DNA from: Zoogloeaceae bacterium
Lineage (GTDB): Bacteria > Pseudomonadota > Gammaproteobacteria > Burkholderiales > Rhodocyclaceae
Assembly (NCBI GenBank): GCA_031277315.1
Contig: JAITMP010000012.1
Coordinates: 1 to 12,344, forward strand
DNA length: 12,344 nt
Direction: 5' to 3'
This document shows, piece after piece, positions 6,236 through 12,113 of this stretch. The notes under the pieces are model-generated. The model was not told the origin of the DNA and did not search any database. It saw only the letters and a list, made by a program, of their open reading frames with translations. Made by a program: the position numbers and the translations under genes. Numbering within the stretch: position 1 is the first letter of the stretch; each line of letters opens with the position of its first letter.

Positions 6236-6360
6236 AGGGTAATTAACCGCAGGGGCAAGGGTCTCCCGCACGGCTTATAAGATTTACTACAAAAAACGCT
6301 TCACCTTGCACATTCGACCGTGCATCGCAAGACGGCAGGTTATAACGTCGCGCCAGTTGC

Positions 6361-6401
6361 AAAATAAACAATGAAGAAAGACGGCGGCATTTCTGCCGCC
6401 G
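6361..6401 (-). terminator. Rho-independent terminator downstream of rtcB
   Basis: On the minus strand: 8-bp GC stem CGGCGGCA / UGCCGCCG with GAAA loop (plus coordinates 6382-6401), followed by UCUUUCUUCAUUGUUUAUUUUG. It lies 14 nt after the rtcB stop (TAA 6415-6417 rc). Confidence 0.55.
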
Positions 6402-6414
6402 CCGTTTCCCGTCA

Positions 6415-7632
6415 TTACCCTTTCACACACACGATTTGCTTCAGTGTGTACACCACTTCCACCAAGTCCGCCTGCGCGGCCATCACGGCGTCGATGTCCT
6501 TGTAGGCGGCCGGCGTTTCGTCAATCACGCCGGCATCCTTGTGGCATTCGACACCGCGAGTAGCCGCTTCGTGGTCGGCGACGGTGTAGGTCGCTTTCGC
6601 CTTGGTGCGGCTCATCACGCGGCCTGCGCCATGCGAGCAGCTTTCAAAACTCTCCGGATTGCCGAGACCACGCACGATGAAGCTGCGCGCGCCCATGCTG
6701 CCGGGGATGATGCCAAGCTGCCCTTTTCTGGCGCTAACCGCGCCCTTGCGGGTGACGTACACGTCCTCGCCGAAGTGGTGTTCCTTTTGCACATAGTTGT
6801 GGTGGCAATTCACCGCTTCCAGGTGTGTCTGGAAAGGCTTGGCGATTACTTTGCGCACGGCCTCGATGACCGACTGCATCATCACTTCCCGATTCAGCGC
6901 CGCGAACTTTTGCGCCCAGCCGACTGCGCGGACGTAGTCAGTAAAGTATTTGCTGCCTTCCTCGAAGTAAGCCAGATCGCGATCCGGCAGATGAACGTCA
7001 TTTTTCATGGCGTCCTCGCGCGCCAGCGCGATGAACATGGTGCCGATGGCATTGCCCACACCACGGCTGCCCGAGTGCAACATGAACCAGACCGCGCCTT
7101 GCTCATCGAGGCAAACTTCCACGAAGTGATTGCCGGTTCCCAATGTGCCCAGATGGTTGATGTTGTTGGTCTTCGCCAATTGCGGATACTCCTGTGCCAA
7201 CGCTTCAAACTCAGGACGCAATTCAGCCCATGCCTTGCTCACAGATTCCGGCGCTTTCTCCAGCTTCCATGCGCCGGGGTCGCCCATGCCGGGACGCCGC
7301 CCGTGCGGAACGGCCTTTTCGATGGCCGCGCGCATGGGCGCCAGGTTGTCGGGCAAGTCTTCGGCGCACAAGGTTGTCTTGCAGGCGATCATGCCGCAAC
7401 CGATGTCCACGCCAACGGCGGCGGGAATGATGGCGCGCAAGGTCGGCACGACCGATCCCACCGTCGCACCAATGCCCACATGCACATCCGGCATGGCGGC
7501 CACGTGCTTGAACACGATGGGCAACCGGGCAGTGTTCGACAACTGCTCCAGTGCCTTGGGTTCAACAGGCACGCCATTTGTCCATCGCTTCAGCGGAACG
7601 CCGCCTTCGATTTGTTCTTCGATGTATCGCAT
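6415..7632 (-). CDS. rtcB: RNA-splicing ligase RtcB (3'-phosphate/2',3'-cyclic phosphate + 5'-OH RNA ligase), 405 aa
   Basis: Full-length RtcB-like sequence: MPDVHVGIGATVGSV, GVDIGCGM, metal-binding His clusters, and the C-terminal CxHGAGR motif at SCSHGAGRVMSR. Start chosen at ATG 7632 (MRYIEE...) with GGAGGAAAU 9 nt upstream. The ORF-track start at 7653 is a TTG. Confidence 0.9.
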   Translation of the reverse strand: MRYIEEQIEGGVPLKRWTNGVPVEPKALEQLSNTARLPIVFKHVAAMPDVHVGIGATVGSVVPTLRAIIPAAVGVDIGCGMIACKTTLCAEDLPDNLAPMRAAIEKAVPHGRRPGMGDPGAWKLEKAPESVSKAWAELRPEFEALAQEYPQLAKTNNINHLGTLGTGNHFVEVCLDEQGAVWFMLHSGSRGVGNAIGTMFIALAREDAMKNDVHLPDRDLAYFEEGSKYFTDYVRAVGWAQKFAALNREVMMQSVIEAVRKVIAKPFQTHLEAVNCHHNYVQKEHHFGEDVYVTRKGAVSARKGQLGIIPGSMGARSFIVRGLGNPESFESCSHGAGRVMSRTKAKATYTVADHEAATRGVECHKDAGVIDETPAAYKDIDAVMAAQADLVEVVYTLKQIVCVKG

Positions 7633-7647
7633 TTCATATTTCCTCCA

Positions 7648-7683
7648 GAGCAATCCGGAGGAGATTCCTCCTCCGGGTTGCTC
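7648..7683 (-). promoter_or_regulatory. Intercistronic stem-loop (16-bp stem, 4-nt loop, one mismatch) between the SPFH gene stop and the rtcB RBS
   Basis: Plus-strand gagcaaTccggaggag-attc-ctcctccggGttgctc is a near-perfect palindrome. The arms contain GGAGGAG/CUCCUCC (SD and anti-SD-like), immediately 5' of the rtcB SD (UGGAGGAAAU). No U-tract follows, so it is not a canonical terminator. Confidence 0.4.
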
Positions 7684-10558: not shown

Positions 10559-10597
10559 GCAAAACAAAAAGGCCCGGTTCCTTGCGGAGACCGGGCC
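10559..10597 (-). terminator. Rho-independent terminator (minus strand)
   Basis: Minus-strand RNA GGCCCGGUCUCCGCAAGGAACCGGGCC forms an 8-bp GC-rich stem plus a 3-bp extension with one C bulge. It is followed by UUUUUGUUUUG (plus-strand A-tract aaaacaaaaa at 10561-10570). Confidence 0.5.
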
Positions 10598-10993
10598 TCT
10601 GAATTCAGAGTTTTGGGTGCTATGCGCCTATATCGCGCACCCCTTCCGGTCGTAAAAATAATTGTCATGGGTAAACATGGAAATCGAGCAACCTCGCTTA
10701 ATCAACGGATTCCCGATTACGACATGACTCTCGTTTGCGGATGGCCAATAGGCTTTCGGCCACTGTAGCTTGCCATCTTCCATGCATGAAGCCCCACGCG
10801 CCATGCGAGCAAGCGCCGTCCCGCGCTGTAGCGCGTGCAAGGGTCGAAGATTGGCCTGAATGTTCATGATTAATAAATTTTGTGAAAGTGGTGCTCTCGT
10901 AAAATGACTGCCAAGTCGGGAATGGACGGCACTGTAAAGACTCTTTACTTCGATGTCAATACCCCGGACAATACAAAGTTGTAAAAACAACAC

Positions 10994-11431
10994 ATGCACC
11001 CCGTCATGCCGCAAGAGGCGCCCAATATCACGTTGATACGCCGCCGGAATGTACTGATGCTCTTCCGGTCTTACGCCGAGCACATGTTGACATCCGGCAC
11101 GCCGCCCAAAGGATTGGAGCAATCTTTTGCATCAATGCTCCAGATCTCTCCCAGCATGTGGAGCCAAATTAAATCATCGCGCCCCATTGGCGACAAACTT
11201 GCCCGGCAGATTGAAAAACACTGCAAGATGCCGGGCGGATGGCTGGATGAGTTTGTCGGTGCGACTGTTGCCAAGCCATCCGATAAATTTCAAGCCTTGC
11301 GCAAAGCGGGAGACACGTTGATGGTGGCCGTGCCGAAACGGTTTGCAAAAGAAAACGGGCTTCGAGAAGGCGCGCTGGTCGAATTGAAATATTCAGGAAA
11401 AAAACTGACCGTTGCAGTAGCGGATGATTAA
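10994..11431 (+). CDS. Two-domain DNA-binding protein: N-terminal Cro/CI-type HTH fused to a C-terminal AbrB/MazE/SpoVT swapped-hairpin domain (putative repressor/antitoxin), up to 145 aa; start uncertain
   Basis: HTH-like segment LEQSFASMLQISPSMWSQIKSSRPIGDKLARQIEKHCKMPGGWLDE (recurrent IGDKLAR...GWLD motif of phage-type HTH regulators). C-terminal TLMVAVPKRFAKENGLREGALVELKYSGKKLTVAV resembles the MazE/AbrB looped-hinge motif. No convincing SD before any of the candidate ATGs (10994, 11006, 11057, 11084). TAAAAT -10-like box at 10900-10905 and a GTTGT-N5-ACAAC palindrome just upstream of 10994. Confidence 0.5.
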   Translation: MHPVMPQEAPNITLIRRRNVLMLFRSYAEHMLTSGTPPKGLEQSFASMLQISPSMWSQIKSSRPIGDKLARQIEKHCKMPGGWLDEFVGATVAKPSDKFQALRKAGDTLMVAVPKRFAKENGLREGALVELKYSGKKLTVAVADD

Positions 11432-11727
11432 GGTGATGTGGGCGAGAAGATGCCTTGCTTGTGGTGTTGGTGTTTTTTGCCTGAGCTTGACCATTCATCA
11501 GCGGCGTGGGGTCTTGGCGCGGATGCCTTCATTGAAGGCGCTTATCCCAAGTCAGGAAGGCTTGTCCCGGATTCTTGAATCTTGTTGCGCAAATTCGAGT
11601 AGCGGAGCCTTTGTGGGTGTTGCTGCAACAACTCAAATGTTTTGTCTTTAATACGCCCCGTTATTCTTCTTGATTGCATATTGCCCCTCCCTTCTTACGC
11701 GTAACGCATGCGCTTGAGGGTAAATTC

Positions 11728-12061
11728 TTACCCCGCCAGCGCCGCCTGCTTGGGCGCATCCGCAGCCCATTGATTGAGGCTCTGCCCGTGCGCGGGCGGC
11801 GATGACAGCGGCTTCGTGAATGGCGGGCTCAACTCTCAGGGAAAATTTCCCGGAGAAATGCTTGCGCGGTTCCACGCCATCTTCGGTGCAGGCATCAAGA
11901 AATACTTTCAGCGAGATTTCTCCTTCGCGGCGCAGGCCTTCGACATCGCTGGCGTAAAAATCCGCGCCTCCGTTTAGTCCCACAAATTCGCCCCGGAATA
12001 TTTGGATGTCGGGGTCGAACGAGATAACAGCCTGATAGTCATTGATGGTCATGGTGTTCAT
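11728..12061 (-). pseudogene. HicB-family antitoxin-like gene, apparently frameshifted near 11785-11800; no hicA partner nearby
   Basis: From ATG 12061 the N-terminus TMTINDYQAVISFDPDIQIFRGEFVGLNGGADFYASDVEGLRREGEISLKVFLDACTEDG and FSGKFSLRVEPAIHEAAVIAA match the HicB-like fold. The expected C-terminal GxSLNQW motif (HGQSLNQWAADAPKQAALAG, stop TAA rc at 11728-11730) is found only in the +1 frame. The original frame instead runs on into low-complexity sequence to 11648. Confidence 0.45.
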
Positions 12062-12113
12062 GGGTTCATTCTGTGCTCTCCCAGTCATTTGCGGATTGCT
12101 TCTATCGCGCCTA

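Follow-up and report, generated by a model that had tools for sequence, protein, structure and literature searches.

Analysis of a 12,344-bp stretch of DNA (the window), which is one whole contig of a metagenome-assembled genome (MAG) labelled 'Zoogloeaceae bacterium', indicated that the interval between metK and ahcY is almost certainly a horizontally acquired islet. The islet occupies about 6236-12112 and consists of foreign DNA in a lineage-specific hypervariable slot that extends from the metK stop codon to the ahcY promoter. Its cargo comprises two parts, a frameshifted hicB gene and a 5.1-kb autonomous cassette (6370-11431, from the regulator gene through the rtcB terminator); a cassette of this kind was found in more than 80 unrelated contexts, and the window cargo very probably belongs to that family. 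The explanation that best covers the whole, an acquired islet with an RNA-repair or translation-stress cassette, is one that we consider probable, and by analogy with known systems we lean somewhat towards the cassette being a stress-induced RNA-repair module.

The sequence-only reading of this DNA had placed metK on one side and ahcY-metF on the other side of about 5.9 kb of lower guanine plus cytosine (GC) content, and analyses with Pfam, Rfam and translation located the genes where it had put them. These are metF (3811-4638, Pfam), ahcY (4643-6130, Pfam), the S-adenosylhomocysteine (SAH) riboswitch (6134-6200, minus strand; Rfam SAH, 58 bits) and the 3' end of metK (12113-12344, minus strand; translation and blastn, 78-80%), with its stop codon TGA at 12113-12115. 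The GC content is 0.557 in 6240-12113 vs 0.639 in the rest of the window (1-6239). The GC at third codon positions (GC3) agrees, being 0.81-0.88 in the backbone genes yebC, eamA, metF, ahcY and metK and 0.58-0.75 in the islet genes (rtcB 0.75, slipin 0.66, HNH 0.68, regulator 0.60, hicB 0.58), and the tetranucleotide check that the same reading had suggested gave correlations of 0.53-0.85 between islet and backbone vs 0.94 within the backbone. Its count of 39-46% GC for 10600-10960 was too low: the actual value is 0.493, and only 100-nucleotide (nt) minima reach 0.39-0.41.

A scan of species-representative genomes with AhcY yielded distant relatives only (AhcY identity at most 81%), and the close relatives (AhcY 92-94% identical) came from a large protein collection searched with AhcY. 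They are Ca. Desulfobacillus denitrificans (L165), a 3.0-Mb Zoogloeaceae MAG (L166) and L167/L168. The backbone common to the window and these relatives is metK, ahcY, metF, eamA, HerA and yebC, and the contigs of the relatives also hold two lipid-A acyltransferases as backbone. Comparison of the metK-ahcY intervals revealed 1.0 kb with HicA and small open reading frames (ORFs) in L166, 7.7 kb with PemK/MazE, an MmeI-type restriction-modification gene, a SEC-C protein and BrnT/BrnA in L165, and 5.8 kb with four toxin-antitoxin pairs, SEC-C and BrnT/BrnA in L167/L168. No rtcB, slipin, HNH or tRNA gene lies between metK and ahcY in any of them. In blastn alignments the window matched the close relatives at 629-6028 (80-90%) and 12120-12330 (78-80%), with nothing between. 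The interpretation of the interval as an acquired islet was therefore upheld, since the gap in the relatives holds other cargo and not the same gene content with uniform composition. In about 40 distant beta- and gammaproteobacteria, metK precedes ahcY on the same strand, with its end 50-1600 bp away and no cassette gene in the gap, and about 80 more distant ahcY loci have no cassette gene there either.

Alignment of the borders with the relatives located both junctions. On the left, the native ahcY leader (6134-6212, minus strand) consists of the SAH riboswitch and a -10 box, GCTATAAT, that ends at 6207, with a -35-like TTGTTC at 6230-6235. Riboswitch and -10 box align with L165-L167 and L005, and the similarity stops just upstream of the -10, at about 6215-6240; the rtcB terminator lies about 130 nt beyond the end of this homology. 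This puts the left junction somewhere between about 6215 and 6370, the likeliest point being immediately past the -35 (6230-6235), and the insert left the SAH-riboswitch-controlled ahcY-metF unit intact, in agreement with the suggestion that the native ahcY regulatory region had been preserved. On the right, the homology with L165-L167 ends at the metK stop codon. The metK terminator of the relatives (GGGCGCCC...GGGCGCCC and a T-run) is missing in the window, so that the insert took away metK's own terminator. As hicB follows 51 nt past the stop codon on the same strand, metK transcripts may enter the islet. Scans of the window for direct and inverted repeats detected none of either kind bracketing the islet, and no integrase was present among its ORFs; the sequence-only reading had likewise seen neither an integrase nor an obvious att direct repeat. 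Set beside a classical integrase-mediated island, the islet has the deviant composition, no integrase, no att repeats and, as its target, the metK-ahcY spacer.

The hicB pseudogene (11648-12061, minus strand; Pfam HicB 2.7e-12) had been recognised as decayed, and this proved correct: the frame is lost before the ribbon-helix-helix (RHH) tail, which continues as ...GQSLNQWAADA.KQAALAG* in another frame, and hicA is absent from the window. A HicAB toxin-antitoxin system requires HicA and an intact HicB, and the window has neither. No HicB homologue stands beside any other cassette among the loci compared by tblastn; hicB is a frameshifted orphan that is part of the islet and not of the cassette. 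The inventory of rtcB, SPFH, HNH, HTH-AbrB and HicB genes given by the sequence-only reading was right, but its description of them as typical accessory cargo needs correction. Only hicB stands apart; rtcB, the SPFH gene, HNH, the tRNA-like genes and HTH-AbrB form one recurring cassette.

The contexts of this cassette were analysed by tblastn and ARAGORN in two complete genomes, one metagenome and a further 80 metagenome loci. One carrier is Piscinibacter sp. XHJ-5 (CP123228), with the cassette at about 6.25-6.27 Mb. The parts of the cassette occur in the same order in L001-L004 and in the 80 metagenome loci, with unrelated flanks, and the common order is a divergent AbrB-type gene, a tRNA array, HNH, one tRNA-like gene, slipin, an optional gene and RtcB. 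The array holds 0-23 tRNA genes in conserved order, with PcfJ inside at times, and the optional gene between slipin and RtcB encodes a 254-aa (amino acid) protein or a ClpP-like protease. In Betaproteobacteria the cassette measures 3 to 7.5 kb and forms one operon; a single promoter, which bears the putative operator, serves this one transcription unit. No flanking gene family (integrase, transposase or preferred target) recurs beyond small groups of related hosts, and the distribution is patchy, the cassette lying between unrelated flanks in more than 80 loci and being absent from the close relatives of this MAG. In other hosts its GC content is 0.64-0.70 and tracks that of the host; in the window slipin has 0.57 and rtcB 0.60, so that this copy lies 7-10 GC points below the same genes elsewhere, which points to a lower-GC donor and little amelioration.

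Three optional genes seen in other cassettes are not found in the window, namely a ClpP-like serine protease, PcfJ in the tRNA array and the unnamed 254-aa protein (L001 11216-12235; L003 7083-8231 and 11195-11959). A ClpP-like protease is a classic partner of SPFH proteins. NCBIfam and PADLOC supplied no name for the regulator, the leader, the PcfJ-linked genes or the 254-aa protein (X254).

A promoter scan identified the cassette promoter at 10931-10959 on the minus strand (TTGACA-17-TACAGT, 10/12 matches), 35 nt from the start codon of the regulator. A predicted operator, the palindrome GTAAAGA-G-TCTTTAC (10934-10948), overlaps its -10, and the two are conserved together in about 27 loci; the window has no second copy of the operator. 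A subgroup (L116, L122, L124, L127, L141 and L149) carries the variant GTGAAC...TTCAC, in which the two half-sites have changed in step, a pattern that fits an operator recognised by a dimeric protein. The same subgroup is without the 140-nt RNA described below, so two regulator/operator lineages appear to have co-evolved. The divergent regulator gene (10994-11431, plus strand) encodes 145 aa with an N-terminal CI/XRE-like HTH and a C-terminal SpoVT/AbrB (MazE) domain. Its match to Pfam MazE_antitoxin (2.4e-5) is just under the curated cutoff, and it has a weak match to the phage CI repressor 7nkv (E 0.33, motif MPxGWLD). In L001, L004 and about 30 further loci, homologues (62% identity) are likewise encoded divergently at this position.

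The leader of the transcript (10561-10867, minus strand) consists of a small ORF, a hairpin at its stop codon and a terminator. The ORF (10628-10867, minus strand) has 79 aa here and 52-72 aa elsewhere, with the pattern MKSxxVIRTxRPxxGLVAF...HPGEGSA*, and its stop codon lies in the loop of a conserved hairpin (about 10618-10645). The terminator (10561-10600), 24-36 nt downstream, is conserved in 33 loci. BLASTP of the window ORF with the 'small ORF' of L001 was not significant; the homology is clear from the multi-locus comparison and from the hairpin at the DNA level. The conserved leader codons CAU-CCG-GGA are complementary to the 5' arm of the terminator, and in the window this pair has co-changed (GACCGG, CCGGUC). 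A translation-sensing attenuator is therefore possible, and with low confidence, from these sequence features, the leader might act as one ahead of the tRNA array.

Two structured RNAs are conserved in the cassette. The larger, of about 480 nt (8852-9329, minus strand), fills the spacer between HNH and slipin and comprises a 5' domain (9205-9329), a hairpin (9172-9202), a tRNA-like core (the b7a core, 9099-9171) and a 3' domain (8852-9053), with an invariant GGUCGAAAGACC hairpin at 9056-9067. Its alignment across 32 loci (A6) contains 107 pairs, 65 of them compensatory, and in a structure of 146 pairs compensatory changes affect 92/146; 91.7% of the cells of that structure are paired vs 35-47% in slid registers. 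Double-change cells number 557 vs 166 +/- 11 in shuffled alignments (0/500). The window copy keeps 31/41 consensus pairs of the 5' domain, 4/4 of the small hairpin and 50/62 of the 3' domain. A profile of this RNA matched 81 cassette loci and, in part, Burkholderia cenocepacia, and elsewhere only its tRNA-like portion was matched. Because the whole HNH-slipin spacer is conserved and covaries, the b7a element is only the core of a larger structure, which might exist as an RNA on its own or form a structured 5' leader for the slipin gene.

The smaller RNA (10388-10527, minus strand) is a 140-nt cloverleaf-shaped molecule with a 15-bp closing stem and three arms. Alignment of 21 loci (A2) gave 44 pairs, 11 of them compensatory, with 97.2% of cells paired vs 32-47% in slid registers and 0/500 shuffles; the window copy has a minimum free energy of -70.7 kcal/mol (z = -5.6). 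It is present in 27/33 complete cassettes, the six without it being exactly the variant-operator subgroup, and absent from about 140 non-cassette loci. Its start coincides with the CCA of the preceding tRNA in L004 and with the CCA of the first array tRNA in other loci. In viral contigs, 44 and 14 exact 15/16-mer matches were obtained, none of which held the RNA by nhmmer, so these matches are due to chance. Rfam 15 contains no family matching either RNA at E<=1, and both appear to be uncatalogued.

The three tRNA or tRNA-like genes reported by the sequence-only reading are all there (9099-9171, 10023-10098 and 10122-10194), two of them being less regular than supposed. The gene at 9099-9171 (minus strand; Rfam tRNA 57.7 bits, CCA present), called as 'Tyr-GTA', is 73 nt long and has a short variable region, U1-A72, G73 and U37. 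It does not match a canonical tRNA-Tyr, which is of class II with a long variable arm, G1-C72, A73 and a purine at 37, and it aligns with b7a elements bearing other triplets. Orthologues of the element lie at -240 to -500 relative to the slipin ATG in 43 distinct loci, and B. cenocepacia has one too; the body of the element is conserved while the 'anticodon' triplet varies (CAU, GAU, CGU, GUU, CUU, GAC, AGC and others), and 12/18 of its pairs are compensatory across 35 loci. It corresponds to what Burroughs and Aravind named the 'b7a-tRNA', as quoted in bioRxiv 10.1101/312249.

The array itself is small. The tRNA-His(GUG) gene (10023-10098, minus strand; ARAGORN, Rfam 54.7 bits), with encoded G-1, C73 and CCA, has its best matches among the array tRNA-His genes of other cassettes and is the sole regular array tRNA remaining. 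The pseudo-tRNA beside it (10122-10194, minus strand; Rfam tRNA 40.1 bits, no ARAGORN call) has an 8-nt anticodon loop (UUGAGAGA), a short D-loop and G73 with CCA, and its nearest array member is the tRNA-Phe(GAA) of L152. The first array tRNA, usually Gly-GCC, has been deleted in the window. Where present, it stands before the 140-nt RNA and is mostly Gly-GCC, with Ser, Val, Ala or Gly-UCC in others (L001, L087, L100 and L135); this gene, too, may encode a tRNA-like element whose anticodon is not conserved. Arrays are minimal or absent also in L122, L128 and L141, so the array is the variable part of the cassette and the rest is its core. The homologous cassettes L088, L104, L115 and L123 carry long arrays of 19-23 tRNAs, and the window copy is thus a reduced derivative.

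The rtcB gene (6415-7632, minus strand) encodes 405 aa from an ATG with a GGAGGA ribosome-binding site and matches Pfam RtcB over its full length (2e-128), which identifies a 3'-phosphate/5'-OH RNA ligase. Its metal- and GMP-binding motifs (DxGCGM, GTGNHF, HSGSRG and HGAGR) are intact, and it is about 75% identical to the RtcB proteins of other cassettes. The rtcB terminator that had been placed at 6361-6401 is real, and a terminator scan relocated it on the minus strand to a hairpin at 6380-6403, with a 10-bp GC-rich stem, followed by a T-run at 6370-6379. The slipin/SPFH (Band-7) gene (7682-8818, minus strand) encodes 378 aa that match Pfam Band_7 PF01145 above the cutoff (6.6e-28). Reading of the translation revealed an N-terminal extension of roughly 150 aa and no obvious hydrophobic membrane segment, and the slipin is taken to be soluble. 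The protein has more than 7800 homologues, with about 75% identity across Burkholderiales. A 16-bp hairpin (7648-7683, minus strand; inverted repeat I6, 94% complementary) overlaps the slipin stop codon and immediately precedes the rtcB ribosome-binding site, where it might influence how slipin and rtcB are coupled or processed. In Citrobacter freundii (L169, NZ_CP151862, 3960-7913) a slipin homologue of 57% identity is divergent from rtcR, followed by a nucleotidyltransferase, and no tRNA-like gene was detected in the 450-bp gap at this locus. This is another set of partners for the same slipin family, and RtcR beside a slipin homologue was found in Citrobacter only.

The HNH nuclease (9352-9915, minus strand; 187 aa, Pfam HNH / HNH_5 6e-16) has an intact CxxC...H...N...CxxC motif and is 43-45% identical to the HNH proteins of other cassettes, its domain being nearest to the HNH domains of IscB, Cas9 and PtuB. 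Two ahcY loci of the gammaproteobacterium Wenzhouxiangella (L048 17103-17666 and L050 17121-17684) also contain an HNH homologue (42-43% identity), about 5 kb beyond metF on its downstream side.

The mechanism proposed for the cassette is modelled on the Anabaena TrcR regulon and on published work on Rtc and Ro/Y-RNA. The divergent HTH-AbrB protein would repress the single sigma-70 promoter through the palindromic operator over its -10, and the cassette would be silent in normal growth. Impaired translation or RNA cleavage, such as that by toxin ribonucleases, would turn it on to give a transcript that carries in order the leader with its ORF, hairpin and terminator, the 140-nt RNA, the pseudo-tRNA and tRNA-His, HNH, the RNA of about 480 nt, slipin, RtcB and the terminator. 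RtcB would then reseal 2',3'-cyclic-phosphate/5'-OH breaks in tRNA or rRNA, the slipin and its cognate structured RNA may serve as scaffold or cofactor, and the array tRNAs may top up or shield the tRNA pool. The details of the slipin/RNA scaffold, taken over by analogy, are put forward with low confidence. As neither an integrase nor an att repeat nor a plasmid or phage vehicle was found, the cassette would, on the most economical view, have arrived by recombination in the conserved flanks, that is by replacement through homologous recombination in metK and ahcY after DNA uptake; alternatively, it may have spread with the assistance of HNH, as suggested for L-arrays.

Several points weigh against this account of the islet and its function. 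The metK gene is not adjacent to ahcY in three other Rhodocyclales genomes (L014, L016 and L017), and the closest relatives are not at strain level, for which reason the polarity of the event (a gain here vs a replacement) and its age are not fixed. The b7a-tRNA is reported in bioRxiv 10.1101/312249 to be experimentally unvalidated. The regulator, with its marginal Pfam match, is of the HTH-AbrB family and unlike the RHH-type TrcR of Anabaena, and HNH is given no role in the proposed mechanism. In the window, the array is nearly gone and the b7a core is the most divergent copy seen; the cassette may be in partial decay.

The alternatives were weighed against the same evidence. A more elaborate version, which we find possible though rather doubtful, holds that the cassette is an autonomous ribonucleoprotein repair machine in which the RNA of about 480 nt would be docked on a soluble SPFH assembly and the 140-nt RNA would be freed by tRNA processing, the whole gated by the HTH-AbrB repressor and by a leader-peptide attenuator reading ribosome performance; in that attenuator, equally doubtful as part of the same version, the conserved AUCCGGG codons would compete with the 3' arm of the terminator and the stop codon would lie in the hairpin loop. 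A role in anti-phage defence or abortive infection, with HNH as effector, the tRNA-like RNAs as sensors or decoys and RtcB for self-repair, in place of a housekeeping module for stress repair, would suit a slot that in the relatives holds toxin-antitoxin and restriction-modification genes, an HNH domain nearest to the PtuB and Cas9 types, and a cassette that is patchily distributed and appears mobile. PADLOC has no model for slipin, RtcB or the regulator and gave a generic HNH domain match only, and the homologous Anabaena regulon responds to translation inhibitors, not to phage; defence is therefore unlikely as a separate explanation, although it overlaps the RNA-repair proposal, because conflict biology includes the mending of damage done by toxins. 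That the region is the remnant of a prophage or integrative element, in which tRNA clusters, HNH and RtcB would be phage equipment against anticodon nucleases, we regard as very unlikely. Arrays of tRNAs with HNH homing endonucleases do occur in phages, plasmids or integrative and conjugative elements (PMC8421152, PMC7313664), the N-terminus of the regulator resembles phage CI, and some cassettes contain PcfJ and a ClpP-like gene of prohead-protease type. Yet neither IMG/VR nor a set of 50,697 phage records contains a relative of the slipin, no gene for phage structure, integration or replication lies in the window or, in L001, L003 and L004, within 10 kb, and no flanking family recurs. Hits labelled 'plasmid' proved to be chromids or mislabelled chromosomes, every one of them scored non-mobilizable, and the 15-16-mer matches of the 140-nt RNA in viral contigs were chance.

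It is highly improbable that the region is ancestral in the lineage and was lost or replaced in the relatives. Such a history would leave no integrase or att repeats; the slot is filled in every close relative, so that 'empty' is not the observed alternative, and cassettes can be syntenic within host lineages, suggesting vertical inheritance. Against it stand the GC3 values of the islet and the backbone (0.58-0.75 vs 0.81-0.88), the deficit of 7-10 GC points in the cassette genes relative to the same genes in other hosts, the lack of any cassette gene at this place in four close relatives or in about 80 distant ahcY loci, and the dozens of unrelated contexts in which the cassette sits. A chimera of assembly or binning, joining the DNA of a lower-GC organism to the metK and ahcY of this MAG, is hardly credible: the window is a whole 12.3-kb MAG contig and its composition changes sharply, but the insert is framed on either side by backbone genes whose order and orientation are correct, its junctions coincide with the metK stop codon and the ahcY promoter, and two joins would be needed exactly at a slot that is also variable in the relatives.

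The remainder of the window, on its left, contains a PIN gene (175-591), yebC on the minus strand (630-1370), on the plus strand a HerA/DUF87-like gene (about 1422-2915) with 84% identity to the L166 copy, and eamA, which lies between the HerA-like gene and metF and probably starts near 2920 rather than at 2794. Two long ORFs overlap here on opposite strands, 705-2915 (plus) and 630-2699 (minus); the real gene on the plus strand is the HerA/DUF87-like one, and the minus-strand ORF is genuine just as yebC. After yebC, at 1-591, the window has the PIN (VapC-like) gene with a truncated antitoxin-like ORF upstream, at the place where the relatives have ruvC, and this position is a second variable spot of the same neighbourhood. 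The relatives carry a FitA/PIN pair between ahcY and metF that the window is without; equivalence of the window PIN with that of the relatives was rejected, as the two are not homologous.

Comparison with known systems places the cassette beside two lines of work in particular. Band-7, b7a-tRNA and RtcB have been predicted to form an RNA-repair system (Burroughs and Aravind 2016, NAR 44:8525, quoted in bioRxiv 10.1101/312249), and a cofactor role towards RtcB has been put forward for Band-7 and its tRNA-like RNA, on the model of Ro60 and Y RNA (bioRxiv 10.1101/312249). As that system is summarised there, the cassette shares with it the Band-7 protein, the tRNA-like RNA immediately upstream, the adjacent RtcB, lateral dissemination and a logic of scaffold and cognate RNA that parallels Ro60/Y RNA; the window itself has the SPFH protein, the upstream tRNA-like RNA and the adjacent RtcB with its catalytic residues. 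Relative to the same summary, the cassette differs in that the tRNA-like element is the core of a covarying RNA of about 480 nt, and in having also a tRNA array, HNH, the 140-nt RNA, a leader with terminator and an HTH-AbrB regulator. Some of these parts may already be in Burroughs and Aravind 2016, a paper represented here by its quotation in the preprint.

In Anabaena PCC 7120, the tRNA L-array (trn operon) is co-repressed by TrcR together with rtcB, an HNH gene and a slipin gene; for the array, the HNH gene and rtcB, induction under translational stress has been demonstrated (PMC8421152, PMC10272220). Common to both are a supernumerary tRNA array spread by horizontal gene transfer, an adjacent HNH gene, co-regulation with rtcB and slipin (predicted for the cassette), a repressor site overlapping the -10 and a repressor gene divergent from an HNH operon. 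In Anabaena the parts are scattered over chromosome and megaplasmid and tied by TrcR alone, whereas in the window they form one operon; TrcR is an RHH protein with direct repeats over the -10 and the transcription start, whereas the window has an HTH-AbrB protein and a palindrome over the -10. L-arrays (Santamaria-Gomez et al. 2021) consist of tens of co-oriented tRNAs, up to 43, which makes them far longer than accretive arrays; they have HNH and RNA-processing genes such as rtcB in the neighbourhood, show a patchy distribution implying horizontal transfer, and are silent until translational stress induces them. On this last trait the window offers the architecture of promoter, operator, leader and terminator. 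The window has HNH (9352-9915) and rtcB (6415-7632) close by and the cassette is similarly patchy, but with 2 genes the window array is itself no L-array. The Salmonella rsr-yrlBA-rtcBA operon under RtcR (PMC7790460, PMC4201824) likewise combines RtcB, a tRNA-mimicking non-coding RNA and a putative RNA-binding scaffold protein. In the window the scaffold would be the SPFH protein, and Ro60, a sigma-54 promoter and an Rfam match to YrlA are lacking; neither RtcA nor RtcR (CARF domain) is among the window ORFs.

The large RNA recalls GOLLD and ROOL, large ornate RNAs that lie beside or around tRNA genes: it is likewise several hundred nt long, heavily structured and tRNA-associated, and encloses a tRNA-like element. 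The likeness is one of kind only, as there is no match in Rfam 15 (E<=1) and the hosts are betaproteobacterial chromosomal cassettes, not phages. As an islet the insert is ordinary, another integrase-less insert at a variable slot. Oliveira et al. 2017 are said to have described integrase-less islets in chromosomal hot spots between core genes, and the metK-ahcY interval is similarly a core-flanked variable slot with different accessory cargo in each relative and no integrase or att site; it differs in that the slot is very small, from stop codon to promoter, and in that the cargo points to RNA repair, not defence.

Taken as a whole, the betaproteobacterial cassette looks like the same functional set as that of Anabaena, gathered in one operon under a repressor of a different family. 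It physically joins two separate lines, the predicted Band-7/b7a-tRNA/RtcB repair and the experimentally studied, mechanistically obscure L-arrays. Since it is one operon with an operator, a leader-terminator and two covarying RNAs, it is testable in cultivable carriers (Piscinibacter, Burkholderia), and this extends to the purpose of supernumerary tRNA arrays, to what SPFH and a tRNA-like RNA may do for RtcB and to how damaged translation may be sensed.

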